Below the pieces are notes generated by a model. The model was given only the letters and a program-made list of their open reading frames with translations, was not told the origin of the DNA and did no database searches. Of a stretch of DNA of 64,000 bases, positions 11,131 through 40,408 are shown piece after piece. The position numbers and the translations under genes are program-made. Position 1 is the first letter of the stretch; the number at the start of each line of letters is the position of its first letter. Origin of the DNA: a virus (lineage: Duplodnaviria > Heunggongvirae > Uroviricota > Caudoviricetes); IMG/VR virus record IMGVR_UViG_3300020048_000019, positions 1 to 64,000 of that record; one strand, written 5' to 3'.

Positions 11131-11139
11131 AGGAATTTT

Positions 11140-24307: not shown

Positions 24308-24495
24308 AAATTGTATCCTTAAAGGAGCTAGTTGCATTGTGCGTGTGGGCTGTGATGTGTTTTTTGATAACAGTGACTTTTTACGGTCTAACCAAACACG
24401 ATGGATTGTGGACAATGTACTGGGATCAGACTACTGAATCCGCGGAGCAATTTCTGACGGTCATGGTGACGTCGTATTTGAGAGTCTCAGGCCTA
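24290..24495 (+). pseudogene. decayed partial duplicate of the amidinotransferase gene (corresponds to residues ~115-195)
   Basis: The DNA at 24311-24480 aligns to 23015-23190. The peptide LDENCILKGASCIVRVGCDVFFDNSDFLRSNQTRWIVDNVLG carries a premature stop, a frameshift and an internal deletion. Confidence 0.45.
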
Positions 24496-24562
24496 GCGTA
24501 TTACTAGCAGCAAACTCAAAGTGTTATTTGTGATTCATCCAGATCTGTAATGTAAATCGTGT

Positions 24563-26050
24563 TTACGAGCATACCTTTATCCCGTATAACCGTTCAAATC
24601 TATCAGCGTCTGCACGATCATTGACCATGGGCTCGCCACGTATGTTTAATGAAGTATTAAGCAGCATAGGGCATCCTGTTAACACATACCACTTTTCTAA
24701 CAGTTCTCTAATTCCTGAACCATCTTTTGGTACAGTCTGGACACGACTAGTGCCATCAGCGTGAACGATAGCAGGAAATAACTCAGGATGGCGGCAACGA
24801 GCGATTGACTGCATATACCTATTGTTACTGAAACCGCGAGGCATATCAAAATGCTGATCAGCAAGTTCCTCCAGAATAACTGGCGCAAAGGGGCGGAACT
24901 GTTGTCTACGTTTGATTTCATTTACTTGATCCTTGATTTCTGGGCCTCTAGGGTCCGCTAACAAACTTCTGTTGCCTAGTGCTCTTGGACCAAACTCAGC
25001 CCTGCCGCTAGCAACACCCACAATACGGTCTGACAGAAGGCAGTCCAGAATGGCATGTACAGGGTAAGCACCGCCAATATCATGGCCCAGAAAAGCATTG
25101 TTCCAAGCAATCCTACCGCCATGAGCCAAGGCAGCGGCACCCAAGCTAGAGCCAGCATCACCAGGACAAGGCATAATCCAAATATTATCAAATAGCTCAC
25201 CAAGTCTCCTGTTGGCACTACAGTTCAGTGCAACACCACCTGCATACACCAAGTTCTTGCTCCAGCCGTGCCCTCGGGCACGATGCATCACATTCATTAT
25301 CAGATCTTCCACAAGATCCTGGGCACCTGCAGCAATGTCCATGTCACTGATATGACTCAGATACTTGATACTCAATCCTGTGTGCAGATTTTCCCGGAAC
25401 CGTAGTTCCCATTCATTTGCCACCAGGTCTTTCTTCATCAGCTCGCCAAAGCCACGTTCACCGTAAGCGGCCATGCCCATTAGAATGTATTCTTCGTCTA
25501 ATGGGCGTAGGCCAACGCGGCTAGTCGCTGCTGAATAAAAGAGTCCGATGCTATGCGGGTAACGCTGTGTCCACAGCTTCTGATAAGTTGCTTTACCTTT
25601 TGAATCATATTTTGCTCCCCAAATACTGATAGTATCAAATTCTCCAATAGCGTCAATTACTACTACTGTGGCACGATCAAAAGTGCTGGTCTGAAAGCCT
25701 CCTGCTGCATGACTTAAATGATGATTGTGCGTGCTTATGCGTGCTGGCAACTGGACCATGCCACTCAGCTGATCATTAATGATGCGTCTAGCACTTAACT
25801 TGTCCCACTCTATTCCCTGCCCCGAATACAGTTGTCGTAGCTGTTTCAGCCATGGACGTTCGTAATACGCAATATGATTTAATGCACCACCATAATTCTC
25901 GGCGTCTTGAATTAGTTCAAGACAAAGATTCTCATCGTTCTTTTTCTTGCTGTAACGTTCACTATGTCCGGCAAAAAGAATCTCACCGTCAGGTGATATC
26001 ACAGTGGCTGCTGCATCGTGGAACCCAGCACTAATACCCAGTATGCTCAT
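24563..26050 (-). CDS. NodU/CmcH-family carbamoyltransferase
   Basis: N-terminus MSILGISAGFHDAAATVISPDGEILFAGHSERYSKKKND is typical of NodU/TobZ/NovN carbamoyltransferases. Size 495 aa. Confidence 0.65.
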   Translation of the reverse strand: MSILGISAGFHDAAATVISPDGEILFAGHSERYSKKKNDENLCLELIQDAENYGGALNHIAYYERPWLKQLRQLYSGQGIEWDKLSARRIINDQLSGMVQLPARISTHNHHLSHAAGGFQTSTFDRATVVVIDAIGEFDTISIWGAKYDSKGKATYQKLWTQRYPHSIGLFYSAATSRVGLRPLDEEYILMGMAAYGERGFGELMKKDLVANEWELRFRENLHTGLSIKYLSHISDMDIAAGAQDLVEDLIMNVMHRARGHGWSKNLVYAGGVALNCSANRRLGELFDNIWIMPCPGDAGSSLGAAALAHGGRIAWNNAFLGHDIGGAYPVHAILDCLLSDRIVGVASGRAEFGPRALGNRSLLADPRGPEIKDQVNEIKRRQQFRPFAPVILEELADQHFDMPRGFSNNRYMQSIARCRHPELFPAIVHADGTSRVQTVPKDGSGIRELLEKWYVLTGCPMLLNTSLNIRGEPMVNDRADADRFERLYGIKVCS

Positions 26051-26149
26051 TTGTAGATAAAAGGGTCGCGCTTTCTCAGCTCTTTTAATTTTTTACGATA
26101 ACGAATTTCTAAGGTGATTCGTGCCCATAGTTGTTTGATCCAGTTCATG

Positions 26150-26356
26150 TTATGTCTTTCTAAATTTAGGTGTAGAGTCTGCACTGGCTTCATATTCCAG
26201 TCCTTGTAATACAGCAGCTAGATCTGCAAGAGATTTTTGATCCAGTCTGTGTCTAAACATTGTGGCAACTCCTGCGCCGTACACAAGATAAAACAGATCC
26301 TTGGGATCCTGCTCTAGTTGAATTTTAAATATTTCTTGCATTTTTTCCAGCGTCAT
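26150..26356 (-). CDS. hypothetical small protein (68 aa)
   Basis: ATGA overlap with the upstream gene. Confidence 0.35.
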   Translation of the reverse strand: MTLEKMQEIFKIQLEQDPKDLFYLVYGAGVATMFRHRLDQKSLADLAAVLQGLEYEASADSTPKFRKT

Positions 26357-27396
26357 TTCAATTCCTTTATTTGACGTGCAGGATAATCTGCATCAGTCCA
26401 GTTGTATGTATATGTAGCTTCGACGTTGCCAATTTGAATTTTATACACATCTAGATGCTGTGCAATCTGCGCCCAGATTGTGTTGTAATCCACAGTACCA
26501 AAGCTTTTGATCAAGTCTACTTGTGCTACCTTGGGATGCCCTATTGTCAAGCCTGGGTCTTCGGGATCAAACCCATTAACAATCAACCATTCACGAAACT
26601 CAGCTAGATTCTTTTGCTGCCATTCATATGCACCGGGATCACGTGCCCATTCTATATCAAAGTCGCCTGCTGCTAGAGTCTGTGATCTTAGAGTGCTGCT
26701 AGTCAGTTCGCCTAGCCTCGAGTCTCGCCCTTCGTCGGTAAACACTTCCCAATGAGCCTTGCCCACTGCTTTGTTCACACCCACATACACTCCGCCCAGC
26801 TGGCGATTTAGTGTATCAACCCCAAACAAGTCAAAGTCTTCAGGTTCTAGTTCAAAGCGCGGTGCATTCAACCAGCACATCAGCTGACTGGGGCGTCTCC
26901 ATTCGGGTGCTTGCACCGCTTTTCGCATGCTGAGCACCAGACTTTCCAGCTCGTGACACAAGAGATTTAGTTGACGAATATGCCAACGTGTATCTGCGTT
27001 GGCTTTGTTATAGTACAAACTCATGGCACCCGACACGCCTTGAAGGTCTTCAAACCAACGATGCAGCTGATTCATTCGCTCATGGTCAATGTCTAGGTCC
27101 GGCTGTATTACTGACTCCACTGTGTAAGCATCACAGTCAATACGATAACCCAGGTCAGCTCCATTAACAGCACCAATGCTGGTATTGATAGCCTGACAAA
27201 TGTATTCAGCGGTACGGTGACTTTCGGGCCAGCCCAACCAGCAGTAATTCTTTTCCAAATGTTTTTCATTTTTGATCAGGTCCTTTAGGGCAGCAAGCCA
27301 TTTTGAGCTGAGACTGTTGTTGTATACGTCAATATACACTGGCAACAAGCTGCCAGTTCTTGAACTGCGTAGTGTGATAATGATTTGCTTATTCAA
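26353..27396 (-). CDS. hypothetical protein (347 aa), probably TTG-initiated
   Basis: The only available start is TTG at 27394-27396. It is preceded by GGTGGA at 6-nt spacing and overlaps the upstream stop. Confidence 0.45.
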   Translation of the reverse strand: MNKQIIITLRSSRTGSLLPVYIDVYNNSLSSKWLAALKDLIKNEKHLEKNYCWLGWPESHRTAEYICQAINTSIGAVNGADLGYRIDCDAYTVESVIQPDLDIDHERMNQLHRWFEDLQGVSGAMSLYYNKANADTRWHIRQLNLLCHELESLVLSMRKAVQAPEWRRPSQLMCWLNAPRFELEPEDFDLFGVDTLNRQLGGVYVGVNKAVGKAHWEVFTDEGRDSRLGELTSSTLRSQTLAAGDFDIEWARDPGAYEWQQKNLAEFREWLIVNGFDPEDPGLTIGHPKVAQVDLIKSFGTVDYNTIWAQIAQHLDVYKIQIGNVEATYTYNWTDADYPARQIKELK

Positions 27397-28681
27397 TTTG
27401 ATTCCACCATTTTAGTACTGCAGGGCGCTGACTTAATATAGTGCTCATGTCAGTGGGGGCTGTGCGTATGCTTTCTAATTGTAACACACGAGCCTTGCCG
27501 CGAGCAAGCTCTTGTTGGTAAGTGTCAGGCCATTGTTCATCAAACGTGGGTCTTGACTTTAGCTGAGTTAGCACTGATCGCATACTAGACTCTGTGCAAC
27601 GGCCAATCAGTTCGTCCAACCAGGGTCCTAATAGGTGTCTAGGCAGCGCAAGTGGACTCATTGCAATACTGGGATCAAAGCTGAATATTACCTTGCTCAG
27701 TAACTCTACATCGTATTCGCGTGCTAGTGCTTGTATAGCATCTACTTCAGTCATGCCCGGCAGGGTCAGCGTAAAGTCTAAACGCATTTGTCTACGGTTT
27801 TTCTGGTGGGCAAGTCCGGCGGCAAAGTTGGTTCTGAATTGGTTGTAGTCAAGTCCGGTTCGGATGTACTCGCCAGTAGCTCCTGTGCCGTCGATGCTAG
27901 CGCATATCTGCCAGTCACGTATAGAATCCAAAATATCGCTATATAGATCACACCCACGAAAATTAACACGGCTAAGATTGGTATTGTACCTTGCATATAC
28001 TCGTCCTCCATCTCCTAATTCAACAATGCGCTGCATATAGCGCCAGTGCTGTTCATACATGAGCGGTTCTCCACCCACCCAGTACACTTCTTCTACCCTA
28101 TGCTGTTCTACAGCCTGAGCAAATTCCTGTTCAACTTGATTCTCTTGAAAGGCGTGAATCTGATGTCGTATATCGTTTCGCATCCAACTGTTTTTTGGAT
28201 CTGCCCAATTAACCATGTTGTTCTGCTTTTGTTCAGTTTCCCACGAGCTGGATAACATGTCCCCGCAAGTTCTACACTTGAAGTTACAAAGGTTGCTAAA
28301 CCTATAATCCCAGCTAACGGGCTGCATTGTGGTTGCTCCACTGCTATCAGTTGTGGCATAAACTTCCTGTAATTTGTGCGCAAACAAGTGTCCAAAGTAA
28401 TCCCTGTACACACTGGTATTTAACAGCTTTGAATTGCATACGTCACACTCGGGTAACGTTTCTCCTGCCATCATCCTGCGGCGCACTGACTTCATGTGGT
28501 CTGAGTTCCAGTGCGCTTCCAGAGTGACCGGAATATACTTGCCTGTGCCTGCTGCTGTGTCTATATACTGTTCAAAGTTTTGTGCGGGTTCGCGACTGGC
28601 ACAGCACAAGCGCCGTTCAGTTTGCGGACTCAGATACGTGTGAGTCCACGGTGCCAGACATAATGACTCAGGTTTATCCAT
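27389..28681 (-). CDS. radical SAM enzyme, paralog A1 (N-terminal Cys-rich module plus CNFKCRTC)
   Basis: CxxxCxxC in FSNLCNFKCRTCG. N-terminal CLAPW..CCASRE..RRRMMAGETLPECDVC. Start re-assigned to ATG 28681 (the track start is a TTG). Confidence 0.6.
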   Translation of the reverse strand: MDKPESLCLAPWTHTYLSPQTERRLCCASREPAQNFEQYIDTAAGTGKYIPVTLEAHWNSDHMKSVRRRMMAGETLPECDVCNSKLLNTSVYRDYFGHLFAHKLQEVYATTDSSGATTMQPVSWDYRFSNLCNFKCRTCGDMLSSSWETEQKQNNMVNWADPKNSWMRNDIRHQIHAFQENQVEQEFAQAVEQHRVEEVYWVGGEPLMYEQHWRYMQRIVELGDGGRVYARYNTNLSRVNFRGCDLYSDILDSIRDWQICASIDGTGATGEYIRTGLDYNQFRTNFAAGLAHQKNRRQMRLDFTLTLPGMTEVDAIQALAREYDVELLSKVIFSFDPSIAMSPLALPRHLLGPWLDELIGRCTESSMRSVLTQLKSRPTFDEQWPDTYQQELARGKARVLQLESIRTAPTDMSTILSQRPAVLKWWNQIE

Positions 28682-29687
28682 TAATGAACTCAAATAAAGG
28701 TTGCTGTATTGTGGTGTAGGCTAGTTCATTGGTTATACTGCGATCAAAGAACCTGTTTTGATTGTGGCGCAGCTTTTCCAATACTCTAGGTTGATCAACT
28801 CTAGCACAATCAAAACAGGTTACTTGTTGCACAACACAATCGATACGCTGCTGCCAGTCTGGAATGTTGTCATAGCTTTCGTCAAACAGCTCGGGAAATG
28901 TTTCAAATCCCTGTGAGCGCAGATAAGCAAGATTTCCTTGTGTTGATGCCATGAGTATAGGATGCTGCGCTGCTATGGGTTTGTAGCTCTTTTCGGTCAG
29001 GAACAAATGATCGTGTTGAGTAAGACTGTAGCCAGTTGTGGCTGCATAATCCACATAGGTTTCTACTGCCAGTGTAAATGCAGTGTTGTGCATCCAATCA
29101 GGATTGATATATCGTTGCTGCAATACAGGGTCGGGCCAATCATCGGGTAAATTTATTCCACGTGCTTGATAACTGTGAATACTGTCCCATAGCTGATTTT
29201 TCAGCTGATCAAATACATAGTCACGTTCAGTTCGTTGTTTGCCCAGGGTCAGAAAGAATTTCTTTTTAGGGGTTCTAGGTTGCCAAGCAATGTCGAGCAC
29301 GCCAGTTGTGGTCAATTGTGTCTGATCCAGGATCCAGTACCAGTAAGGCGTTGCAATAATTTTCACCCCTGGTAACAGATTAGGCTCGTGCCCTGATATA
29401 ATAAAACATCCTTGCCCCGGATGCTGTAAGAAATCTAATAGAATAGAATGCATTTTGAAATGAATGTAGTGTTCATTCTTGGCATCAAATATCACACGAT
29501 AGCCCTGTTGCAGGTGCAGCGGAATCATGTCATGATTCGGGCCGTACATGTCATAATAAAACACTGTACTCAGCGGGTATGTTGCTGCAGGATCAAAGAA
29601 TTCAAACGGCATGCCCTTGGGCACAATCATTCTTATCTTTTCCTGAGGTGCTCCCGTGGGATCGTAAACAAATACCAGCTTAGGCAT
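28674..29687 (-). CDS. fucosyltransferase-like (GT10-like) glycosyltransferase, paralog 4 of 5
   Basis: HDHLFLTEKSYKPIAAQHPILMASTQGNLAYLRSQGFETFPELFDESYD. Start re-assigned to ATG 29687 (the track start is a TTG). Confidence 0.5.
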   Translation of the reverse strand: MPKLVFVYDPTGAPQEKIRMIVPKGMPFEFFDPAATYPLSTVFYYDMYGPNHDMIPLHLQQGYRVIFDAKNEHYIHFKMHSILLDFLQHPGQGCFIISGHEPNLLPGVKIIATPYWYWILDQTQLTTTGVLDIAWQPRTPKKKFFLTLGKQRTERDYVFDQLKNQLWDSIHSYQARGINLPDDWPDPVLQQRYINPDWMHNTAFTLAVETYVDYAATTGYSLTQHDHLFLTEKSYKPIAAQHPILMASTQGNLAYLRSQGFETFPELFDESYDNIPDWQQRIDCVVQQVTCFDCARVDQPRVLEKLRHNQNRFFDRSITNELAYTTIQQPLFEFING

Positions 29688-30894
29688 TCTTTTGATACTC
29701 AAGTAACACGGCCATTTCAGGAGCAACTTGTGCGAAGTCTTGATTTCTTTTGCGATCTAGATCACGTATCTTCATCCTAGTCATCATGCCGTCGGTGCTG
29801 GCGCCACCATTCATGAAGTCTGAAATGCGCCCAAACTCCTTGGCATGTTCTTCAGGCACACCACAGGTTTTCAAGAACACGCTTAGTTCAGCTTTTGCTG
29901 TGTCTGGCAAGGTGGCAATACTAAAATACCAAGCATCGTGCATGATGTTCCAGTACACATAGTCAAAGCCCTGTTGCACAATCCATTGTGCCAATTGATC
30001 TAGATAGCGCACGTTGAACACGTTTACTGTACTGCAACACTGTAGCCGAATGTTGGCATGCTCAGATCGCAACTGGCGGAATCGTCCTAGGTTTTGTTCT
30101 ACTTCGGACCATATAGCGTTTGAGCGTTGGTATTCAAAGCGTGGACCTAGATCATCAATGCTGAAAGCAATTTCCACTGTTTTAAAATGGCTCCAGATCT
30201 CTGGACCACGATCGGGCCACTGCGTGCCATTTGTGTTGTAGTGTATTTCTACCTGATGCGCAATACCACGATCAATCATGCCTTGTAACATGTCAAAGTG
30301 CTGCTCAATCATGAACGGCTCACCGCCAGTAAACTCAATATAACGAATGTTGTTTAAATGATTGTCAATTTCTTGCCAGAATTGAGCATTTTCCTTGGGC
30401 CAAGCCCCGGCCCGTAGCATAGTATATGCATGTGACTTTTTCTGTTCTTCACGGGGCAAGAATGATATCTCTTCCGAAGCATATTGACTGCTACTCCAGC
30501 TGCCGCATATACGGCATTTTAAGTTGCAGATGTTGCCCAGTTTCAGATCCAGGAACATCAGGGGCTTGGCATCCACAGTCCACTCGGTGTCTGACAGAGT
30601 GTGCTTGAGGCGGTCCAGAGTATGCATGCGTTTGCTGGTACGCCCTGAACGTTCTTCATTCCAGCATTTGCGGCAGGTCTGCGGCTTTTCGCCAGCTAGA
30701 AACTGTTCACGTAGCTTGGTCATGCTTGAACTGTTTTGTATGCCAGCAAAGTCAGCACTCAGCAAACTGAACTTGTTACCAGCATCATCTACCAGTTCGT
30801 CGTCAGCTAGGCAACAAGGGCGCACTGTCCCCACGGGACTGGCTTCTAGGCTGATCCAAGGCAGTATGCAAAAGGTCTTGTGGGGGATGTTCAT
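29680..30894 (-). CDS. radical SAM enzyme, paralog A2
   Basis: LKLGNICNLKCRICGS. N-terminal FCILPW..PCCLADDE..FLAGEKPQTCRKCWNEE. Start ATG at 30894 forms an ATGA overlap with the upstream stop. Confidence 0.6.
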   Translation of the reverse strand: MNIPHKTFCILPWISLEASPVGTVRPCCLADDELVDDAGNKFSLLSADFAGIQNSSSMTKLREQFLAGEKPQTCRKCWNEERSGRTSKRMHTLDRLKHTLSDTEWTVDAKPLMFLDLKLGNICNLKCRICGSWSSSQYASEEISFLPREEQKKSHAYTMLRAGAWPKENAQFWQEIDNHLNNIRYIEFTGGEPFMIEQHFDMLQGMIDRGIAHQVEIHYNTNGTQWPDRGPEIWSHFKTVEIAFSIDDLGPRFEYQRSNAIWSEVEQNLGRFRQLRSEHANIRLQCCSTVNVFNVRYLDQLAQWIVQQGFDYVYWNIMHDAWYFSIATLPDTAKAELSVFLKTCGVPEEHAKEFGRISDFMNGGASTDGMMTRMKIRDLDRKRNQDFAQVAPEMAVLLEYQKNA

Positions 30895-32288
30895 GTCATG
30901 ATGTCCAAATAAGAAAAAAGGCTGCGCCAATTGGTGTTGCGTCTGCGATCCATTTCGTCTAGGTACACACGCAATTGCTCAATGTCATGATAATTATGAC
31001 TGGTTTGTTGCTGTAGTAGACTTTGCAGGCCCTGCATGCGCGGAATGGCCTCTTGTTGTTCCGCTGTGCGCAGTGGCATTGCTGCAAATATGCGTTCAAA
31101 GTCTTGTTGCCAGAAATCCCATGCATAGGTCTTGGGATGCTGAAACATGTGCAGGCCTGTGTAGAACTGAAAGTAATGGCCAATATGTTTGTGCTGGCTG
31201 TACTGATCTATTTTGCGTATGAGATCTGGCATGGTGCGCACCGTCATGGCTGTTACAGTTTGGTTAGCATTCAATCGCAGCCACGAGCCTTGCTCACTGG
31301 CCCAGGCAAAACGCTGTTCAAACTGATCAAGATTCAATCCCGAGCGCACAAATTCTTGTTCAGGGCCCCAGCAGTCTATACTGGCAGTGAGATCAAACAC
31401 TGCAATATTACCAGCAGCTTGTAGGTCACGTATGCGAGGAATGTATCTATTCCAGGCTGAGTCAGGCACATTGAGGTTGCTGAATATGCAGAACTGTAGA
31501 TTGGGACTGGGTCGGCGCTCAATGATATCCAGCACGCGAGTCATTAGTTCGTGCTGCAAAAAGGTTTCGCCACCCAGCAAATGCAAGCGCACTAGGCTTT
31601 GCACATTGCGATCCAGCCATTCCAGCCAACGTTCAAAGTATTCTTTTGCTGCTGCTGTGGGTTTGTGTATTACGGGAATGGTCACGTTACCTGAATCAAA
31701 GTCCCCATACTTGATATTTTCTGCTTCAATTTTACTACTAAGGTTGCCGTTACAGTACATGCAGCTTAGATTGCAGGTATTCTGTGCAAAGATCTCTACT
31801 ATGCGCGGAGTCACGTGTGTAGCAGTAGGATCGGTCAGCAGCTCAGGCGGTGTTAGCCCCCGTATGTCTAGATTGTGCTGGCGGTCACTCCAGCCACCTG
31901 CACGCTCAATATCGCCGCAGTATTCACAACCGCCACGTGGCCATTCTCCTGCCAGCATGAGTTCACGATCAGCAATCTTTTTGGGCAGGTTATGAAAGTT
32001 CTCCATTTGATCTAGTTCAAACGGCACAGGGTTTACTCTGTGACAACTGGCACTACTAAGCTGATTGAGATATATAGTACTCCAGGTCCATTTGGATTGA
32101 CACGCTGTGGCTGTGTTGATTGGAAACCTTTCACCTTGTGCCAACTGCTGCTGTGTAAATTCTGCTATTTCTTGTCGTATGTGCGGCAATGCTGCTTGCA
32201 CTCCTGCAATATAAGCCAAGTAGCTGGGCCAGTCTGGACCAGCAAACACAGCATAGTCATCAGCAGTGACATAATGAGCTAGATTCAT
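30891..32288 (-). CDS. radical SAM enzyme, paralog B' (B-type N-module with extra N-terminal extension)
   Basis: AQNTCNLSCMYCNG. CQSKWTWSTIYL..SCHRVNP..LMLAGEWPRGGCEYCGDIE. An internal ATG at 32288 gives an ATGA overlap. The track start at 32324 is also an ATG. Confidence 0.55.
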   Translation of the reverse strand: MNLAHYVTADDYAVFAGPDWPSYLAYIAGVQAALPHIRQEIAEFTQQQLAQGERFPINTATACQSKWTWSTIYLNQLSSASCHRVNPVPFELDQMENFHNLPKKIADRELMLAGEWPRGGCEYCGDIERAGGWSDRQHNLDIRGLTPPELLTDPTATHVTPRIVEIFAQNTCNLSCMYCNGNLSSKIEAENIKYGDFDSGNVTIPVIHKPTAAAKEYFERWLEWLDRNVQSLVRLHLLGGETFLQHELMTRVLDIIERRPSPNLQFCIFSNLNVPDSAWNRYIPRIRDLQAAGNIAVFDLTASIDCWGPEQEFVRSGLNLDQFEQRFAWASEQGSWLRLNANQTVTAMTVRTMPDLIRKIDQYSQHKHIGHYFQFYTGLHMFQHPKTYAWDFWQQDFERIFAAMPLRTAEQQEAIPRMQGLQSLLQQQTSHNYHDIEQLRVYLDEMDRRRNTNWRSLFSYLDIMT

Positions 32289-33547
32289 TTCAAGGCTCGC
32301 AATTCTGGAATCACGTCCAAACATGATTCATTTCTGATAGCATCAAGCTCGTGTGTTTTGCGCCAGAACGTGTCCAGCAGCTGAGTGTTGTCTGTTGCGT
32401 TCATAAAGGTAATGGCTGATTCAAAGCCTTGTGTGGCACGGCCCAGGTGATCTTGTGGCTGCAGCCAAGATATGTGCTCGCGCCATTTGGCTGTTAATTC
32501 GGCCTTGTACTCACTGGTAGCAATGTCTATTCTGTAGTGTGCAGGATCTTGAAGGATGTTTACGTTCAAATCCTGTGCTCTAATAAGGCCACGCTGAACC
32601 CAGCTACGATGAAAGTCCGGCAAGCTCCAAGCATTCATTATACTGAGTGTAGGCGAGATGTAAAAGTCCACATCAGGACACACACGCATCATTTCTGCAC
32701 GATTCAGCTCCACTGTGCTCCAGTTAGTGCCTTTTCTAATATACTCAGCTCTGGCGCCACGATCGTCTAGACTTGCACCCACTGCCACACTGTTGAATTG
32801 TTTCCAGTATTCGAATACACTCCGACCCTTTAGATCAGTATGTGTGAAGTTTGTGTTGTAGATCAAGCGCACATCAAAGCGCTTTCTACGCACCAGCTCA
32901 TCTAGAATACGATAATGTTCTTCCATGAGCAAGGGCTCGCCACCAGCAAAGTAGATCTGTTCCACATAGTCTAGATGCGGTTCTAGCTGTGTCCACATGT
33001 CAGTTTCAGTACGGCCTGCGTAGTTAAGAACAGTGTTGCGTTCTTTCCAGTCCCCGCCTGCCAGTCGGGCTTGGTCCTGATACCATTGTGAACTAAAGAT
33101 ATGCCCACAGCTTCTACACTTTAGATTGCACAAGTTACTGAAACGAATGTCCCAGTAAGTCATTTCAAACGGCGTGGCTTCTAGTTTTTTTACCTGGTGA
33201 CCGTGATGTTTGTTTGCACTCTTGCGGCCCGAAAAGAAACCTGACTCTTCTTGCTCATAACAGCGGCCACATGCAGCATTGGGTGTTTCACTCAGCATGT
33301 CTGCACGTAGTGATTGCATGGGTTTATCCTGCCAGATTTCTGCCAGTGTATTTTTCCTACAGTTGCCCACTTGCCCCACGCCCATTTCAGCATGGCAGCA
33401 AGGATATGCTTCGCCTGTGGGATAAGCATGCAAATGGATCCAGGGATAGATGCAAAAGGTCTTTGAGTCCTGTAACAGGAATTGTTCACGCTGTGTGAGC
33501 TCTGTGGGCTTTACTAAATCTGTGCTGTTATATTTGTATTGACTCAT
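32285..33547 (-). CDS. radical SAM enzyme, paralog A3
   Basis: FSNLCNLKCRSCGH. N-terminal FCIYPWIHL..PCCHAEMG..ACGRCYEQEE. Confidence 0.6.
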   Translation of the reverse strand: MSQYKYNSTDLVKPTELTQREQFLLQDSKTFCIYPWIHLHAYPTGEAYPCCHAEMGVGQVGNCRKNTLAEIWQDKPMQSLRADMLSETPNAACGRCYEQEESGFFSGRKSANKHHGHQVKKLEATPFEMTYWDIRFSNLCNLKCRSCGHIFSSQWYQDQARLAGGDWKERNTVLNYAGRTETDMWTQLEPHLDYVEQIYFAGGEPLLMEEHYRILDELVRRKRFDVRLIYNTNFTHTDLKGRSVFEYWKQFNSVAVGASLDDRGARAEYIRKGTNWSTVELNRAEMMRVCPDVDFYISPTLSIMNAWSLPDFHRSWVQRGLIRAQDLNVNILQDPAHYRIDIATSEYKAELTAKWREHISWLQPQDHLGRATQGFESAITFMNATDNTQLLDTFWRKTHELDAIRNESCLDVIPELRALK

Positions 33548-34928
33548 ACCATTCTTTTAATCTGGGAAACGTTGTGACAAAGTCAAGCCCACGGCGTTGA
33601 TCATATTGTGTAAAGAACCTGCGAAAGTCTTTTTCAAGATCATTGGAATTGAATTCTTTTTGCTGATCGTCAAAGGTTAATGGTTCCATGGTTATATATG
33701 CTCCACGATGCGGCTGCTCAACAGAACACAGATATCTTACAAAACTGGTCAGCAAGTCCTGTTCTTTTGTTGTTAGCCACTTGGAGTTACGTTCTACACA
33801 TGCTGCAATTTCATCACTGTACATTTGTCGCAGCGGCCGGGGCAAGATCAACACACTTTGGAATGTGGGCCAACGCACATAGCTCATGTAAAGATTAAAC
33901 AGCCTTGGACGGGCTTGTTGCTTTAGTGTGACAATCCAGTCGACAAATTCAACTAGGCCGTCAATGCTCACAGCACTCATTGTGGTCAGCAACTGTATAG
34001 ACACAAACAATTGGCTGTGCATCAGTGTGTGCATGTTTTGTGTCCACTGTGCCCAATCCAGACCGTGACGCACATATTCGCCTTTATCGCCCAGACCCTC
34101 GGCGCTGACAGCAATAGACCAGCTCCACTGTGAGCCCTTGATACGATCCAAAAAGCGTTGCAGCGTTTCGGCATCATAGCTGAGATTTGTGGTCAAGTGT
34201 ATGGTGCAGCCCGTGGGATTGGGGCGGTCATGAAGCCAGTCTAGTAGTCGCCAAAAGTGCTGACTCATCATGGGCTCGCCACCGGTGATTCTGAGTATTT
34301 TTACATGTTGGCCCAGTTCCTGATCCCACCACTTAAAGAACGCATCAGCATAGGGATTTTCTTCACGTACACCGTAAAGGAACTTGCCAGTGTCCACATA
34401 ATGATTTCGTTCATCTGTTACTAGGCCTTGATATGCGCCATTTTGTTTTATGTCTCTGCTCCAGCTTGAGCTAATGTCTGGACAGCAATAACTACATGCT
34501 AGATTACAGGTTCTATCAATGCCCAATTCTAGATACTTGGGAATTACTCGTTGGTCAGACGGTGCGTCAAATACTTGTTGCAGTTCGTCTTCGGTAGCCA
34601 TTTGGCTGTACCAGGTCCTATGTGCCAGTTCCTCTGACTTTTGATCTTCTACTACCCAGCAAAATTGGCAGTCTAGCGGACGCTCACCTGCTTGCATCAT
34701 GGCACGTTCTTGCTTTTTCTTGGCAGTGTTGTGCAGTGCAGACAGGTCCTGGGCTATTTCATCAAGATTGCTCACATGCGGAGGATTGTGGTGGCAACTG
34801 GCTGTCCACCCATTCCACAGCCATATACTAGAGTGAAACCATTTGGCTCCACAAAAGCTAGTGCTCTTGGCATCCAGTACACGAGCCTTGTACTCGTGCA
34901 TTATACGCAGATTTTCAGGAAAGGCCAT
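33528..34928 (-). CDS. radical SAM enzyme, paralog B1
   Basis: DRTCNLACSYCCP and ITGGEPMM (GGE). N-terminal FCGAKWFHSSIWL..SCHHNPPH..MMQAGERPLDCQFCWVVED. No C-terminal Cys cluster, so no SPASM domain. Confidence 0.6.
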   Translation of the reverse strand: MAFPENLRIMHEYKARVLDAKSTSFCGAKWFHSSIWLWNGWTASCHHNPPHVSNLDEIAQDLSALHNTAKKKQERAMMQAGERPLDCQFCWVVEDQKSEELAHRTWYSQMATEDELQQVFDAPSDQRVIPKYLELGIDRTCNLACSYCCPDISSSWSRDIKQNGAYQGLVTDERNHYVDTGKFLYGVREENPYADAFFKWWDQELGQHVKILRITGGEPMMSQHFWRLLDWLHDRPNPTGCTIHLTTNLSYDAETLQRFLDRIKGSQWSWSIAVSAEGLGDKGEYVRHGLDWAQWTQNMHTLMHSQLFVSIQLLTTMSAVSIDGLVEFVDWIVTLKQQARPRLFNLYMSYVRWPTFQSVLILPRPLRQMYSDEIAACVERNSKWLTTKEQDLLTSFVRYLCSVEQPHRGAYITMEPLTFDDQQKEFNSNDLEKDFRRFFTQYDQRRGLDFVTTFPRLKEWYESIQI

Positions 34929-36258
34929 TGTACCATTCTATTAGATCATTTTTCCCATTGAATGCTTGCGCAAAGTTCTTGTTTCGTCGTTGATCGTACT
35001 GTGAAAAAAACTGTGAAAAATCATTCAATAACTTGGTCTGGTCAAAAGCTTCTGAGTGAGGAGTGTCAACCACATCCAGGTAGTCAATTAGTCTCTGTAC
35101 ATGATCTAGTTCATGCTCATGAAACAAGGGATTGTGTTGACTGCGATAGTGCAATTCTTTTAGTTCAGCAGCATAGCGGGCACGTAGTGAGTGTGGCATT
35201 ACCAGCGCACTTTGAAAGCTGGGGAATCTAAGAATGTTTAAAGTGTAGCTCACAGCATCACGTCCGTAACGTTGTTTTAGGTCCAGTAGATAGCGCAAGT
35301 GATCACTCAAGCTGGGCAAGCACAGCGCATTGATTGTGCCCATAAAGTGTAGTGTACGCACACGCTTGCTGGCAAGAATCTTTTCCACGTTGGCTTGCCA
35401 TGCCAGGTAGTCTAAGCCATCACGAATGTATTCAGCCTGGGCGCCCACAGCTTCTTGACTGGTGTAGATATCCACATCAAGTCCTTGTACACTGTCCAAC
35501 AACCTATCTACGTCTATTTCTGCACCCAGGTTGCTGTTGATCGCAAGGCGTGTAGTGCTCTTGCCTGTATTGTTCTTGAACCAGTCAATGAGTCGCCAGG
35601 TGTGGTGGGACATGAGGGGCTCTCCTCCTGTGATACGAAGCTCTTGAAGGGTACGGTGTAGATCAGTCTCCCACCACTGAAAGAATGCCTCAACATAAGG
35701 ATTGGCTTGCCCGTGTTTATATAACTGAGCAGACTCATGAGCATGAGTGAAGTGATTCCGACCATCGCTAACCAAGCTAGTATAGGGTCCGTTATTTCTA
35801 ATATCTTTAACCCATGTTGTACTAAATGCAGGGTTGCAGTAGCTGCAAGCAAACTGACAAGTACGATCAAAAGCAATCTCCAAAGTACGGAGGTCCACGT
35901 CATCAGTTGCGGGTGTGTTGAATGCTTCATGCAGAGCCTTGATAGGGTAGATTTTTGATTTGTACACACGGTCGCTCACAGCATCACGGCCCATGTCTTC
36001 TATTTTCCAGCAGTATTCACACCCTGCAGGACGTTCGCCTGCAATCATTCTTGCACGATCTGCTTTCTTTTCAGGAGTATTGTGCAGCAGCCTAGGGTTG
36101 GCAACAACCTTATCTCGGTCTACCAAATGGGCTGGCGGATGGTGGCAGCTGGTGCTCATGCCGCTACCAAGCCAAATGGTAGCATTAAACCATTTTGCAG
36201 CGCAAAAACTGGGGCTCAGGGTATCCAAGACTTCTTGGCGAAATTCAAGATCGTTCAT
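34915..36258 (-). CDS. radical SAM enzyme, paralog B2
   Basis: DRTCQFACSYCNP and ITGGEPLM. N-terminal FCAAKWFNATIWL..SCHHPPAH..MIAGERPAGCEYCWKIED. Confidence 0.6.
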   Translation of the reverse strand: MNDLEFRQEVLDTLSPSFCAAKWFNATIWLGSGMSTSCHHPPAHLVDRDKVVANPRLLHNTPEKKADRARMIAGERPAGCEYCWKIEDMGRDAVSDRVYKSKIYPIKALHEAFNTPATDDVDLRTLEIAFDRTCQFACSYCNPAFSTTWVKDIRNNGPYTSLVSDGRNHFTHAHESAQLYKHGQANPYVEAFFQWWETDLHRTLQELRITGGEPLMSHHTWRLIDWFKNNTGKSTTRLAINSNLGAEIDVDRLLDSVQGLDVDIYTSQEAVGAQAEYIRDGLDYLAWQANVEKILASKRVRTLHFMGTINALCLPSLSDHLRYLLDLKQRYGRDAVSYTLNILRFPSFQSALVMPHSLRARYAAELKELHYRSQHNPLFHEHELDHVQRLIDYLDVVDTPHSEAFDQTKLLNDFSQFFSQYDQRRNKNFAQAFNGKNDLIEWYNGLS

Positions 36259-37357
36259 TTAGGTATTGTTCTAATAGAGTGGGCAATGCAGCCCGTTGCT
36301 GCTGATTGTATTCCACCAGGTGTTGTTGATTGTATTTACAGATGTTACGACTGGCTTCCCAGAAATCACTAGCACCTTGATCCACAATCCAAGCCACTGT
36401 TTCTATTATACGATCTATTCTATCATGTGGGCTATCTATTAGATCAAATGACTCGTCAATCAAATGACCAAACGTTCTAAACCCTGCATTGCGTAAAGAT
36501 CTATAGTAGCCAGGATTAGCAGCTACTACAAATGGGTGTGCCATTAAAATAGGCTTCCAGATCTTTTCTGTTCTAAACGTGTGCGGATAATCAAATATAG
36601 TTTCTGATACCAAGCTAAACCACGAGTCTGTATAGCAGCGCGGATTAACAATAGCATCGCCCCAGGTGTTGTCAAACAGCTGGTGTTTGACAAAGCCACC
36701 ATTGGTATACAAACTAGGCTTTAGATTTTCACGAGCACGATCTATTTCGTATTCTGGGGGCAACAAGCGTATAGGTTCTAGCTTGGCAGTTTCTAACTCA
36801 GACGTAAATGCCATTTCTACAGTGCTTCCTAGGTTGGTCCACAGTGCATGTTCCAGTGCACCTAGTTCACGCAGGCCATCTATTAGATACTTGCGATGAG
36901 GGCGCAAGCGTCCATTTAGGAAAAGAAACGTATAGGGCCTGTAATCTTTGTGGTCCAGAGCCGCTTGTACCTGTGCAGCTTGATTCTCTGTGTATTCTAC
37001 TATGTTGCTGAAGTAACAGTCTGTCTTGCAGTAGCGTATACCGGGCTCTAGATCGCCAGACGTCAACAAACCAATAAAGCCTTTTGCAATCATGTCATGT
37101 ATGCGCAAGCGTTTAAGCTGTAGTAGAATAGTTTCGGATCCTTCTGCAGGGTTTGAAAACACTATCTGTCCCGGATGTAGCAGGGCCCAGGCATTTATTT
37201 CAGCCCAGTGCTGTTTCAGCAGCACACGCCCCACAATATACACAGCATCAGAATCTAGTTCAGCAGGCCACTGCCAGAATGACCCATCGGCATAAGGCTT
37301 TAGCAGGTCCCAGGTCTCGGCCCATTCATCCACATGGATCTTATGTGGTCCTAGCAT
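36245..37357 (-). CDS. fucosyltransferase-like (GT10-like) glycosyltransferase, paralog 5 of 5
   Basis: ETIFDYPHTFRTEKIWKPILMAHPFVVAANPGYYRSLRNAGFRTFGHLIDESFD. Confidence 0.5.
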   Translation of the reverse strand: MLGPHKIHVDEWAETWDLLKPYADGSFWQWPAELDSDAVYIVGRVLLKQHWAEINAWALLHPGQIVFSNPAEGSETILLQLKRLRIHDMIAKGFIGLLTSGDLEPGIRYCKTDCYFSNIVEYTENQAAQVQAALDHKDYRPYTFLFLNGRLRPHRKYLIDGLRELGALEHALWTNLGSTVEMAFTSELETAKLEPIRLLPPEYEIDRARENLKPSLYTNGGFVKHQLFDNTWGDAIVNPRCYTDSWFSLVSETIFDYPHTFRTEKIWKPILMAHPFVVAANPGYYRSLRNAGFRTFGHLIDESFDLIDSPHDRIDRIIETVAWIVDQGASDFWEASRNICKYNQQHLVEYNQQQRAALPTLLEQYLNERS

Positions 37358-38759
37358 AGTAAGCGCACTCCTCCCAGAATGATTGCATTTCGGGAAAGGT
37401 CTTTAAAAAATCTGTACCACGGCGCTGATCATGTTCATTAAAGAAACGATAGAAGTCGCCTTTGCGCTGTGCAACTACATCGGCGGGTAGATTCTTTCCG
37501 TCACGCATCCATTCTATGTCACGATCCCAGCGCTGGATTTCATAGTCCTTGAATCCTTTAAAAGGCTCCTCGGGCTTTTCAATTTGACGCAACATCCAGG
37601 CCCAGATCAATTCCAGCTGATCCACATAGCTTTCGGGCAGCAATTGCAAGCTTTGCCAAGCAGGTTCGCGTAGTACAGGAGTATCAAACCACACTCGTTG
37701 ATATGTTTCACTGTAGGTTTTACGCAGGCCCAGGATACCTGCCAACAAGTAGCCCACGCCAGTAACGCTGAGATTGTTCATTGTGACAATAAATGTGATG
37801 CTGCTACGGCCGGGGATTTCTGTTAGAAATTGATTTACTCTGTCCCATACCAGATCAAAGTTCAGGCCATTTCTAATGTATTCTGCTTGATCGCCCCAGG
37901 TGTCCAAGCTAACATACTGCATAAAATGTTCTAGGTTGCCTTCTTGGCACAGTTGTTTTACATAGCCTAGGTACTTTTGCCATGACTTTTCATCTACTGA
38001 GAAGTTTGACGTCACATTTAGGTGCAGCTTGGGACTGGGGTTGGCCAACACATAGTCAAATACTCTGTAGGTATTCCGATCCAGCAAGGGCTCGCCACCA
38101 GTCATTCTAAAGTGTTCAAGCTCAGGGTACAGCTTAGGCCACCACTGCCAAAATGCTTCAACATAGGGATTGTGTTCCCTAGCGGGAATAACACGCCTAG
38201 CCCCTGTAAAGTGTTCAGGAGCATTATGTGGTGTGGAAGTAGCATAAGCGCCATCACGGTTAGCTTCGTCGGCCCAGCTAGAGCTAAACTGGGGACTGCA
38301 ATAACTGCACTTGAGGTTACAAGCATTGTTAAAATTAACTTCAACATAGCTGGGAATGACATCATCTTCTAGTCCTGTTGAATTCTTTATCCGTTCAAAA
38401 TCCACAGCAGCCCATGACTCGCCTGATCTGTAATGGCGATCACTCAGCTGATCATTTGCTTCCATGTTCCAGCAATAGCTACACTCTGCAGGCTTTGTAC
38501 CAGCTAGCATGGCCACACGCTGCTGTTTCTTGTGCTCAGTGTTGTGTAGTGCTGAGGGATTGCGACCAATGTCTTCTATGCTGATCTTGTGCAAGGGAGG
38601 ATGATAACATGAGTTATTGAGTCCCGTGGGCAAGTGTAAACTAACCTGTTTCCATTTGGCCAAACAAAGAGCAGGGCCTAGCTCTGCTCTCATTTGTTCA
38701 GCACTGCTAAGAAACTTGGATTGTGTTCCTACAGACTCATCACCTTTGTTTTGTGTCAT
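37341..38759 (-). CDS. radical SAM enzyme, paralog B3
   Basis: NNACNLKCSYCSP and MTGGEPLL. N-terminal LCLAKWKQVSLHL..SCYHPPLH..MLAGTKPAECSYCWNMEA. An internal ATG at 38759 makes an ATGA overlap. The track start at 38780 is also an ATG. Confidence 0.55.
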   Translation of the reverse strand: MTQNKGDESVGTQSKFLSSAEQMRAELGPALCLAKWKQVSLHLPTGLNNSCYHPPLHKISIEDIGRNPSALHNTEHKKQQRVAMLAGTKPAECSYCWNMEANDQLSDRHYRSGESWAAVDFERIKNSTGLEDDVIPSYVEVNFNNACNLKCSYCSPQFSSSWADEANRDGAYATSTPHNAPEHFTGARRVIPAREHNPYVEAFWQWWPKLYPELEHFRMTGGEPLLDRNTYRVFDYVLANPSPKLHLNVTSNFSVDEKSWQKYLGYVKQLCQEGNLEHFMQYVSLDTWGDQAEYIRNGLNFDLVWDRVNQFLTEIPGRSSITFIVTMNNLSVTGVGYLLAGILGLRKTYSETYQRVWFDTPVLREPAWQSLQLLPESYVDQLELIWAWMLRQIEKPEEPFKGFKDYEIQRWDRDIEWMRDGKNLPADVVAQRKGDFYRFFNEHDQRRGTDFLKTFPEMQSFWEECAYYARTT

Positions 38760-39352
38760 AATGCTCGTTGATCTTTCCATTGTTCAGCTTGGATTTCAGC
38801 TGGCTCAGTTGATTCTAATTCAGCAAATCGTTGTGTCAACTGGTCAATATTCAATATGTTCTTGGATGAATAAGGACTTTTTTTTGTGCGAGTAATCACT
38901 GATGGTATGTTCAACTGTTGACAAACCACTTCACTGCGCCCAATAAAGTCTTCAAACTTCAAGTAATGTCTATTTGTGTAGTGAGTTAATGCATGGTGCG
39001 CACGGTGCCAGTTTTTGTGCCAGTTGTGCTTTTGTTCGAATATATCTAGGTCTGCTACAAATGGCTGTCCATTTCCGCTATATCTAAACCATTCATTGTA
39101 CTGTTCGCAGATCATTGCACTGACAATTTCACTAAACAAATCATTACGAGTCACGTGTATAACCTGCAGGTCAGGCTGATCGGGCAACTGCAACTGTGCG
39201 TCATGACTGTGATACACCATGGATTCTGCAGTGGCGGGCAAAGGTTCTTGATTGCTCATGACCAGTCGCATGCCAAGGCTTTGTGCAATAGTTAGTGCTA
39301 CAAAGATACTGCCGCTACGCCCAGCGCTGCATACTAGGTATTTTACTGTCAT
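38756..39352 (-). CDS. Stf0-like sulfotransferase (PAPS-dependent)
   Basis: 5'-PSB-like VCSAGRSGSIFVA and 3'-PB-like HVTRNDLFSEIVSA (RxDxxxS). Size 198 aa. Confidence 0.45.
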   Translation of the reverse strand: MTVKYLVCSAGRSGSIFVALTIAQSLGMRLVMSNQEPLPATAESMVYHSHDAQLQLPDQPDLQVIHVTRNDLFSEIVSAMICEQYNEWFRYSGNGQPFVADLDIFEQKHNWHKNWHRAHHALTHYTNRHYLKFEDFIGRSEVVCQQLNIPSVITRTKKSPYSSKNILNIDQLTQRFAELESTEPAEIQAEQWKDQRAL

Positions 39353-39939
39353 GATCCAATTTCCAAATATAAGTTTAATCCATGTTGTATATGTTGTTGG
39401 ATTTTGAAATCTGCAGGCAAGGCTGCATCAACTTGTTCCAACGCCTGCTTGTTATTATAGCGCAAACGATGATAGATCATATGTGTTATGGGCATACAGG
39501 TTATTAAATTTCCATGTGGCTGCAACCATGATTGATACCATCTGACTGTGTTTGCGTACTCAATCGGCGTTTTGTATTTGGTCCACTGCTCGCCCAACAT
39601 AACCACTGTGGAATAAGTGTCAGTTACTCTGGGGAAAATACCTGGTGCAATTTCGGGTGTCCAAGGAGCCATTACTGTAGCAAAACTGTCCAATTCAACC
39701 CAACGTGCAACAGGATGGATTAGTTCTACCGCAGGAGCAAAGCTATCAATTGCAGCGATCTTGCCTGGCCGCACACACTGTTGAACAAACTGTGTCAATG
39801 TGCCCGGTCGGCCATGACGTGCTGCTGCATATTCTTGTGCTAGAGGGTGACAACGTTTGTAAAAGCGCCATTGCTCTCGCCAGCTCCGCTGACTCACTGC
39901 TGACATATCAGTTTGTTTAACCACGCTTGAAGTAGGCAT
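39349..39939 (-). CDS. hypothetical protein (about 196 aa)
   Basis: The track start at 39957 is a TTG. First in-frame ATG at 39939. ATGA overlap at the 3' end with the sulfotransferase gene. Confidence 0.4.
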   Translation of the reverse strand: MPTSSVVKQTDMSAVSQRSWREQWRFYKRCHPLAQEYAAARHGRPGTLTQFVQQCVRPGKIAAIDSFAPAVELIHPVARWVELDSFATVMAPWTPEIAPGIFPRVTDTYSTVVMLGEQWTKYKTPIEYANTVRWYQSWLQPHGNLITCMPITHMIYHRLRYNNKQALEQVDAALPADFKIQQHIQHGLNLYLEIGS

Positions 39940-40408
39940 AAGTTGTAGGATGTACAAAATTAAAATACTGCCCCTGATCTAGGCAACTGTGTCTTTTTAT
40001 TTCAGTGTAATCAGGCAAGCTAGTAGCAACGATATTCAGCAAGTCTTGATCATAGTCATCAGTTAGATTGGGCCATGTTTGTTGAGTAGTCACAGTGTAT
40101 TTGTTGATAGCAACATAGACCCAGGCAGGCTGATATTTAACTGAGTTATGCTGTAAGGTTTTTGTGAATTGTTCCAGTACTGTTACAGGATTAGGCAGCA
40201 AGTAAGCCAGCATAAACTTGCTGTCAAAACATGTGCTGCGCACCTTACAATTGGGCAATCGATCAGCAAAATACCCCTGGTCAGGATCACCCTTTAAAGC
40301 CAATTGCAGAACCTGTTGTTCAATACAAAAGTCAATTAGTTCTTGGTCCTGAGCGATTGTACCTTGGTTGTTGTAGTACAGTGATAATTGCCATTGTCGA
40401 GCATTCAT
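39917..40408 (-). CDS. hypothetical protein (163 aa)
   Basis: ATG at 40406-40408 overlaps the upstream TAA by 1 nt (TAATG). The track start is a TTG. Confidence 0.4.
   Translation of the reverse strand: MNARQWQLSLYYNNQGTIAQDQELIDFCIEQQVLQLALKGDPDQGYFADRLPNCKVRSTCFDSKFMLAYLLPNPVTVLEQFTKTLQHNSVKYQPAWVYVAINKYTVTTQQTWPNLTDDYDQDLLNIVATSLPDYTEIKRHSCLDQGQYFNFVHPTTYAYFKRG

Follow-up and report, generated by a model that had tools for sequence, protein, structure and literature searches.

The window analysed here, the first 64,000 nucleotides (nt) of the IMG/VR virus record IMGVR_UViG_3300020048_000019 (Caudoviricetes), contains a cluster of predicted modification genes built around an array of radical S-adenosylmethionine (radical SAM) enzymes. 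The array occupies positions 27389..38780 of the minus strand and consists of seven radical SAM genes of the N-terminal twitch (N-twitch) type (27389-28693, 29680-30930, 30891-32324, 32285-33547, 33528-34928, 34915-36258 and 37341-38780), with two interspersed genes for paralogous proteins resembling glycosyltransferases of the GT-B fold (28674-29726 and 36245-37357). On one side of the array lies the gene for a predicted O-carbamoyltransferase of 495 amino acids (aa; 24563..26050, minus strand), and on the other that for a divergent 198-aa protein, probably of the sulfotransferase superfamily (38756..39352, minus strand). The original prediction, made from this DNA alone, held that a NodU-type carbamoyltransferase and an Stf0-like sulfotransferase bracket the array and, together with an amidinotransferase, form a decoration set reminiscent of Nod factor and saxitoxin tailoring that would be very unusual for a phage. 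Both open reading frames (ORFs) are real, and they do flank the array with its interspersed GT-B-like genes; the comparison with related loci described below gives no support to the idea that the bracketing genes work together as a set.

When IMG/VR was searched with one of the radical SAM proteins, at least 181 contigs were recovered, of which 80 related loci were fetched; the presence counts below refer to these 80. The source genomes of the related loci reach up to approximately 350 kb. All seven radical SAM genes are present in 80 of the 80 loci. The carbamoyltransferase is encoded in all 65 loci that extend far enough, the remaining 15 ending at contig ends, and the amidinotransferase in 47 of the 53 that do so, whereas the 198-aa protein was detected in a single locus (L067, 61% identity). 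Thus, the bracket formed by the carbamoyltransferase and the sulfotransferase candidate is a physical arrangement in this genome rather than a conserved design, because the former belongs to the core of the cluster and the latter is found in 1 of 80 loci.

The carbamoyltransferase combines an N-terminal Kae1/ASKHA-like domain with a C-terminal YrdC-like domain and matches both Pfam families of the superfamily well above the cutoffs: Carbam_trans_N (PF02543) with 126.7 bits (cutoff 24; E-value 1.9e-36; residues 104-306) and Carbam_trans_C (PF16861) with 158.3 bits (cutoff 27; 1.7e-46; residues 338-484). In phmmer comparisons with PDB sequences, it is collinear over residues 9-483 with the solved enzymes NovN (1.5e-53), GdmN (2e-45) and TobZ (about 2e-39), and residues 10-199, including the ILGIS..HDAAA start, also align to NovN and GdmN. 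Enzymes of the TobZ type follow a two-step mechanism and carry a His/His/Asp metal site in the Kae1 domain and a KxR...SxN motif in the YrdC domain (PMC9654439). Both sites are intact in the phage protein, the former as H110-H-L-S-H114 (HxxxH), D133 and D298 within G297-D-A-G-S, and the latter as K380-R-R382 and S467-L-N469, aligned with NovN and GdmN; the family motifs FGPRALGNRS (at 353) and FRPFAP (at 385) are kept as well. Given the presence of both domains and of the catalytic motifs, the protein can be assigned by its sequence to the TobZ/NovN/NodU superfamily as a complete O-carbamoyltransferase with two domains and predicted enzyme activity, and the C-terminal catalytic domain and Kae1/YrdC residues on which the original assignment depended are in place. 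The designation NodU-type is accurate at the level of the superfamily, that is, for the two domains and the motifs; the NodU equivalog model NF041651 of NCBIfam is matched at 141.8 bits, far below its cutoff of 1000, and over residues 232-488 only, so that the protein is not NodU proper. With TobZ, NovN, GdmN and NodU the phage enzyme shares the two-domain architecture, the HxxxH...D site and the FGPRALGNRS, K-R-R, FRPFAP and NTS-x-N motifs, but it is about 80-190 residues shorter (495 versus 576-687 aa), shows low pairwise similarity to them and is preceded by a translationally coupled micro-ORF of 33 aa. NovN, the decarbamoylnovobiocin carbamoyltransferase and closest solved homolog, and TobZ both carbamoylate sugar hydroxyls. 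A scan for promoters and terminators around the carbamoyltransferase gene gave no signal above the shuffle background. The 3' ends of the carbamoyltransferase and amidinotransferase genes converge on a variable interval (23573-24562 in the window, where it carries a gene for a 244-aa DUF6071-like protein) that ranges from 3 nt to approximately 4 kb in the relatives.

The micro-ORF (26047..26148, minus strand; MNWIKQLWARITLEIRYRKKLKELRKRDPFIYK) carries no annotation; its translation, which was checked, ends in ...RKRDPFIYK, and its stop codon overlaps the start codon of the carbamoyltransferase (ATGA). It was found in 69 of the 80 related loci, lies at most 400 nt from the carbamoyltransferase start in 56 of the 65 loci that carry this gene, and is more conserved than every enzyme of the cluster, with 88-97% amino acid identity among the matches listed. 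Its 54 unique nucleotide versions vary at 21, 13 and 31 sites in the first, second and third codon positions, respectively, and synonymous codon differences outnumber non-synonymous ones approximately 2:1 (15709 versus 8226); by this pattern of variation, the micro-ORF is under clear constraint at the protein level. A peptide with the C-terminus ...RK.DP[FY]IY also adjoins carbamoyltransferase homologs of 30-58% identity (at approximately 11030-11140 in locus L006, 5730-5815 in L007, 18244 in L092, 18620 in L097 and 3074 in L148). In phage RsoM2USA, an unannotated copy is located one gene upstream of the carbamoyltransferase, with no radical SAM gene nearby; a tblastn search of the phage records with the 33-aa peptide gave no match, and this copy was picked up by a motif regular expression alone. 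The micro-ORF thus travels with the carbamoyltransferase and not with the radical SAM genes. The micro-protein may serve as a small subunit or as a carrier, or may itself be a substrate. The residues that follow the conserved Tyr differ among these peptides (K, KH or EE), and the loci fetched for the carbamoyltransferases of phages C48C1 and S-CAM1 yielded no DPFIY motif. A further ORF of 63 aa (26150-26341, minus strand), between the micro-ORF and the gene for a 347-aa protein, has a counterpart in one relative alone (L060, 69% identity) and is another strain-specific insertion.

All seven radical SAM proteins of the array match the NCBIfam family NF033640 (N_Twi_rSAM) at 180-383 bits (cutoff 170). 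Each contains the CxxxCxxC motif and an auxiliary-cluster (twitch/SPASM) domain at the N-terminus, where four invariant Cys residues are common to all. A literature search on this family found no paper on a characterized member, and we know of none. Bacterial relatives, at 31-37% identity, are concentrated in Bdellovibrionota and often form tandem arrays, with up to 13 match positions (in 600-nt bins) within 21 kb, beside genes for GT2 glycosyltransferases and nucleoside diphosphate (NDP)-sugar enzymes (loci L129, L132, L137, L140, L152, L170 and L172). On the two Bdellovibrionota chromosomes examined, the N-twitch genes are situated among genes for GT2, NDP-sugar epimerase and UDP-glucose dehydrogenase. 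Thus, the bacterial and phage arrays share the protein family, the tandem arrangement and the proximity to glycosyltransferase or NDP-sugar genes; unlike the phage array, the bacterial ones are chromosomal, and carbamoyltransferase homologs occur near them only now and then.

Two further GT-B-like paralogs, of 375 and 394 aa, are encoded on the plus strand (20329..22618) and have a C-terminal domain in common with the two in the array. The paralog alignment reveals invariant residues (E252-T, T263-E-K and K268-P). None of these proteins matched Pfam, and thousands of homolog clusters were detected for the GT-B-like protein. For the 370-aa member, the best Foldseek match of an AlphaFold2 model was SenB (E-value 1.5e-3), accompanied by EXT1/2, the alpha-1,3-fucosyltransferase of Helicobacter pylori, MshA and WaaG, all of them GT-B enzymes and all matched weakly. 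The amidinotransferase (22602..23642, plus strand, convergent with the carbamoyltransferase) belongs to the AGAT/StrB1 family, as originally predicted: it is collinear with AGAT (6.2e-15), StrB1 (1.7e-14) and SxtG (7.4e-10) from the PDB, its GGisCcTqDiRRrG segment aligns to GGfhCwTcDvRRrG around the catalytic Cys (GGxxC...RRRG), and hGDA aligns to the HiDA of the catalytic His motif (H-x-D-A). The conserved 347-aa protein encoded between the array and the micro-ORF and carbamoyltransferase genes (26353..27396, minus strand) is present in 70 of the 80 loci and has no match in Pfam, PHROG, NCBIfam or the PDB. PDB sequence searches with this protein, with the neighboring 320-, 394- and 375-aa proteins and with one radical SAM protein yielded nothing or chance-level matches.

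The gene for the 198-aa protein overlaps both neighboring genes by 4 nt, which couples it translationally to them. The gene is real and conserved: 20 homologs have 46-100% identity to it, and none of them has a name. On its own, the protein has no match in Pfam (at E-values up to 10), NCBIfam, PHROGs or PDB sequences; no match was obtained from 50,697 phage records with tblastn, and a scan of 185,579 reference prokaryote species genomes found no close relatives. An AlphaFold2 model built from the homolog alignment is confident (predicted local distance difference test score, pLDDT, 88.9; predicted template modelling (TM) score 0.86), and its best PDB match in Foldseek is Stf0 (1tex; E-value 2.5e-3, TM-score 0.41-0.52). 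Other sulfotransferases (CurM, 3-OST and Cpz8) are interleaved in the same list with shikimate, adenylate and gluconate kinases. The modeled fold by itself therefore cannot tell a sulfotransferase from a P-loop kinase, given that the match to Stf0 (TM-score about 0.5) is no better than those to shikimate and adenylate kinases.

More informative is the wider family, for which a profile retrieved 166 remote relatives among 1.84 billion representative sequences; 98 of these were aligned, and the family tests and conservation figures rest on these 98. Among them, 19 match Pfam Sulfotransfer_3 (best E-value 8.1e-7), two match Sulfotransfer_1, and none matches any kinase family. One relative, P0031, which the family profile recognizes at 1.5e-16, exceeds the Sulfotransfer_3 cutoff (28.5 versus 27 bits), so that the link of the 198-aa protein to curated sulfotransferase models is transitive, via relatives of this kind. 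Compared with the PDB, the 98-sequence profile has as its top matches SULT1A2 (0.021), NodH (0.044), SULT1A1, CurM and Stf0. In these weak profile alignments, G11-R12-S13-G14-S15, which in the model connects strand 2-8 to helix 15-26 as a loop, is in register with the PKSGTT 5'-phosphosulfate-binding loop of SULT1A2 and SULT1A1 and with RSGSS of NodH. H50, which follows strand 44-49, aligns to His108, the catalytic His of the KTH motif of SULT1A2, and equally in SULT1A1, at E-values of 0.02-0.07; the base of Stf0-type enzymes may differ. R69, at the end of strand 63-68, and S78, in helix 72-85, fall on the 3'-phosphate-binding element R-N-x-x-D-x-x-x-S of SULT1A2 and SULT1A1, where the corresponding residues are R130 and S138, and F133-E-D aligns to Y-E-D of SULT1A2, with an identical register in SULT1A1. 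R12 is invariant across the relatives, and at least 90% of the sequences keep G14, S15, H50, R69 and S78; no other positions in the superfamily alignment are as highly conserved. The proposed motifs therefore do align to the loops that bind 3'-phosphoadenosine 5'-phosphosulfate (PAPS). The term Stf0-like is appropriate for the fold and the superfamily and fails for the family itself, as there is no match to PF09037 and the resemblance to 1tex is at the fold level only.

The assignment has its weak points: the 198-aa protein has no direct family match, the E-values of the profile against the PDB are weak (0.02-0.6), with a few unrelated proteins at 0.3 and above, and a C-terminal 3'-phosphate element of the GxxGxxK type was not identified. 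These leave some room for a P-loop kinase acting on a sugar, a nucleotide or a small molecule, or for a non-catalytic protein with this fold, for which the Foldseek E-values of shikimate kinase (2.6e-3), hCINAP/adenylate kinase and gluconate kinase, all close to that of Stf0, and the lack of a direct Pfam sulfotransferase match would speak. Such a function is unlikely, as the loop reads S/P-G-R-S-G-S, with the invariant Arg at the site of the 5'-phosphosulfate-binding Lys/Arg and without the lysine of a Walker A GK[ST] motif, and the relatives match sulfotransferase and not kinase families. Taken together, the Pfam matches of the relatives, the top PDB matches of the profile and the register of the phosphosulfate loop, the His and the 3'-phosphate-binding residues make it probable that the protein belongs to the sulfotransferase superfamily. 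It has in common with Stf0 (1tex), NodH (9vki), Sulfotransfer_3 proteins and SULT1A1 the P-loop-like fold, the R-S-G-S loop, a His that in the weak alignments falls on the catalytic position and the Arg...Ser pair for the 3'-phosphate, but is much smaller than Stf0, NodH and SULT1A1 (198 versus 244-295 aa) and represents a family of about 20 close and 166 remote members.

The 198-aa protein is an accessory product of a hypervariable slot, the interval from the conserved gene for the 320-aa protein to the first radical SAM gene (38756-40414 in the window, with equivalents in loci L008-L087 at approximately 2.3-6.3 kb of the locus). The slot measures 0-3.7 kb and contains more than 30 unrelated protein clusters. 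Contents identified elsewhere include an AMP-binding enzyme, TctC-like and GDSL-like proteins, a DegT aminotransferase, an extra radical SAM enzyme and more GT-B-like paralogs. Sulfotransferase-superfamily ORFs occur in nine of the 80 loci, always in the slot and in three unrelated forms: the 198-aa type (L067), a 363-aa type (seven loci) and a 231-aa type with a weak match to Stf0. A slot protein of L081, unlike the 198-aa protein, matches PF09037 weakly (8.8e-4), and in relatives L001 and L002 the 198-aa type is the sole slot gene. Sulfation would thus be one optional, strain-specific cassette among many decorations. In the window, the slot also holds two small accessory ORFs, of 202 and 165 aa (39349..40414, minus strand), that have no family matches and were detected in none and one of the 80 loci, respectively; they were considered as suppliers of PAPS and rejected, as neither has a P-loop like that of adenosine 5'-phosphosulfate kinase.

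Contigs binned into bacterial metagenome-assembled genomes (MAGs) also carry the cluster, at 54-74% identity and together with tail genes: L091 and L142 (183 and 148 kb), both from the Haliscomenobacter MAG EUL_031, L092 (Legionellales), L093 and L136 (Fischerella). These are probably mis-binned phage contigs, and possibly provide a hint to the hosts.

Carbamoyltransferases of phages have been on record since 2010 (PMC3037559), and those of T4-like cyanophages and pelagiphages are designated 'Nol-like'. We detected homologs of the window enzyme in 139 phage records, mostly of cyanophages, the best match in an isolate being that of the Ralstonia jumbo phage RsoM2USA (46% identity), where the homolog itself is unannotated and the surrounding genes are all annotated as hypothetical. 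The claim of rarity fails on this ground; the other classes of enzymes are no strangers to phages either, and the cluster itself is present in at least 181 IMG/VR contigs. In S-CAM1, the carbamoyltransferase gene adjoins heptose-synthesis genes, an NDP-sugar epimerase gene and a tail fiber gene; an amidinotransferase and a sulfotransferase are both annotated in cyanophage S-SCSM2R; and on AG-345-D19, a viral contig from a marine single cell, the amidinotransferase, carbamoyltransferase and radical SAM genes occur together in a different order. Like the window enzyme, the carbamoyltransferases of cyanophages, pelagiphages and RsoM2USA are encoded in sugar-related or tail-proximal islands; the window enzyme is 26-36% identical to those of the cyanophages and differs in its linkage to a seven-member N-twitch array and the DPFIY micro-ORF. 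Campylobacter phages CP220 and CPt10 contain interchangeable modules of five radical SAM genes and a glycine amidinotransferase-like gene (PMC2853527). These resemble the present cluster in the combination of a tandem radical SAM set with an amidinotransferase gene in a large myovirus, whereas the window has seven N-twitch genes, GT-B-like genes, a carbamoyltransferase and a variable tailoring slot, and tblastn at E<1e-3 revealed no similarity between the cluster and CP220 or CPt10.

The window is phage-like in its gene content, which includes RNA ligase, a MoxR-type ATPase, an HNH endonuclease, the thymidylate synthase ThyX (14431-15120) and a baseplate wedge subunit (62241-63968, minus strand). 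The nearest relatives of the baseplate are found in jumbo myoviruses, namely SCTP-2, Phosso, Atu_ph07, RsoM2USA and Rak2-like phages; megablast of positions 24000-40000 against the phage records gave no match. On the minus strand, the baseplate wedge gene is followed by genes for a Thr/Val/Gly/Asn-rich protein of 5023 aa with a faint FG-GAP match (47170-62241), a 201-aa protein, a 606-aa tail fiber-like protein whose C-terminus weakly resembles the Peptidase_G2 intramolecular chaperone (44553-46373), several unassigned genes and then the modification region. The modification region thus follows immediately downstream of the genes for the baseplate, the giant protein and the tail fiber and shares their strand. 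An NDP-sugar 4,6-dehydratase/epimerase and a PseC/DegT aminotransferase are encoded at 15732-17773. A B12-binding radical SAM enzyme (5645-7144, plus strand), similar to PhpK and C-methyltransferases of peptides made by the ribosome and modified after translation (RiPPs; 1.7e-22), lies well apart from the array and bears no relation to the N-twitch family.

We consider it moderately likely that the region is part of an island for the biosynthesis and tailoring of a sugar or glycan in an abundant lineage of jumbo myoviruses with a Rak2/Atu_ph07/RsoM2USA-like baseplate. The core of the island consists of the seven N-twitch radical SAM enzymes, the four GT-B-like paralogs, the 347-aa protein, the 33-aa micro-protein, the carbamoyltransferase and, mostly, the amidinotransferase. 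The glycan reading is favored by the presence of GT-B-like paralogs, of a sugar dehydratase with an aminotransferase and of an amidinotransferase resembling StrB1, by the action of the closest solved carbamoyltransferases on sugars, by the position of the bacterial N-twitch relatives among GT2 and NDP-sugar genes and by the sugar genes next to the carbamoyltransferase of S-CAM1. The fiber genes beside the island hint that it acts at the interface of the virion or the host surface, and the 5023-aa and 606-aa proteins are candidate targets. By analogy with TobZ, the YrdC-like domain of the carbamoyltransferase would form carbamoyl-AMP from carbamoyl phosphate and ATP, and the Kae1-like metal site would then carbamoylate the product at a hydroxyl, which most likely belongs to a sugar. 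The sulfotransferase candidate would use host PAPS to sulfate a hydroxyl or amine, either of this product or of a related one. We infer these donors, the glycan acceptor and the action of all the enzymes on one product, which would carry carbamoyl groups, in most cases amidino groups and in a few strains sulfate.

Several observations pull the other way. No gene for a flippase, a polymerase or a lipid carrier was recognized, and instead of a glycan the cluster could yield a small molecule or a modified protein. General scans of the window detected no gene for PAPS synthesis or carbamoyl phosphate synthesis. The GT-B assignment comes with weak Foldseek E-values (1.5e-3 or higher) for a model with a pLDDT of 79.7. 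Twitch/SPASM radical SAM enzymes often act on peptides, and the cluster includes a conserved ORF of 33 aa.

The latter point leads to the most serious alternative to a glycan product, one that we regard as improbable yet worth keeping in view: the cluster would modify a peptide or protein, with the 33-aa micro-protein as a substrate, scaffold or carrier, in the manner of a RiPP or carrier peptide and loosely like the carbamoylation of the HypE C-terminus by HypF, and the enzymes would act on the ...RKRDPFIY tail or on the giant and tail fiber proteins. The conserved, carbamoyltransferase-linked micro-ORF is what keeps this alternative alive: the ORF is constrained at the protein level more tightly than the enzymes, its stop codon overlaps the carbamoyltransferase start, and its C-terminal motif persists beside carbamoyltransferases of 30-58% identity, including that of RsoM2USA, which has no radical SAM gene nearby. 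In addition, the secondary NCBIfam matches of the radical SAM proteins include peptide maturases, and HypF-type enzymes with Kae1 and YrdC domains carbamoylate a protein Cys (PMC9654439). However, NF033640 has no known peptide substrate, and its bacterial members belong to glycosyltransferase-rich sugar clusters in which no precursor-peptide gene was recognized among the annotated genes. Sugar chemistry would better account for the genes of the four GT-B-like proteins, the sugar dehydratase and the aminotransferase; the residues past the conserved Tyr differ, and a small partner subunit of the carbamoyltransferase would explain the linkage equally well.

A role of the island in hypermodification of the phage DNA, with glycosylated, carbamoylated or aminated bases that would counter host restriction, is considerably less probable. 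The window encodes ThyX; radical SAM, pyridoxal phosphate-dependent aminotransferase and P-loop enzymes occur in known pathways of thymidine hypermodification; and the Campylobacter phages with radical SAM and amidinotransferase modules carry modified DNA. Against this stand the lack of any signature of a DNA glycosyltransferase, hydroxymethylase, DpdA-like protein or nucleotide kinase in or beside the cluster, the location of the cluster within the tail fiber and baseplate module, and the occurrence of the bacterial radical SAM relatives in polysaccharide-type loci. The originally suggested resemblance to Nod factor or saxitoxin tailoring is confined to the superfamily level, at which three enzyme classes do correspond (NodU/SxtI, NodH/SxtN and SxtG/StrB1), and a lipochitooligosaccharide or a saxitoxin- or aminoglycoside-like small molecule is a very improbable product, considering that the NodU equivalog cutoff is missed widely, that no NodC chitin synthase, NodB deacetylase, NodA acyltransferase, SxtA polyketide-like enzyme or inositol cyclase was found among the window ORFs scanned, and that the sulfotransferase candidate is missing from approximately 99% of the relatives.

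Both enzymes with which this analysis started are ordinary in kind, being divergent members of known families, and neither is unusual for a phage. The interest lies in their setting: an uncharacterized and very abundant cluster, represented in at least 181 IMG/VR contigs, with a variable tailoring slot and a conserved micro-ORF, that joins seven radical SAM enzymes with glycosyltransferase-like proteins, carbamoyl- and amidinotransferases and an optional sulfotransferase right beside the host-recognition genes. The slot amounts to a natural experiment, as phages that differ only in its content could reveal the product and its effect on the host range. The micro-ORF, which is unannotated in the RsoM2USA record, offers a concrete new clue to the workings of this subgroup of TobZ-type carbamoyltransferases. 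Speculatively, this lineage might build a decorated glycan or glycopeptide on its own giant baseplate or tail fiber proteins or on the ...RKRDPFIY tail of the micro-protein; the radical SAM enzymes would process this product, which would bear carbamoyl and amidino groups, with the slot, in which the sulfotransferase is one cassette, diversifying the decoration among strains and the micro-protein serving as a new carrier or obligate partner of a TobZ-type carbamoyltransferase. If this holds, the strain-variable glycan or glycopeptide would be a chemical counterpart of the sequence variation of tail fibers, serving host range or the evasion of defense.

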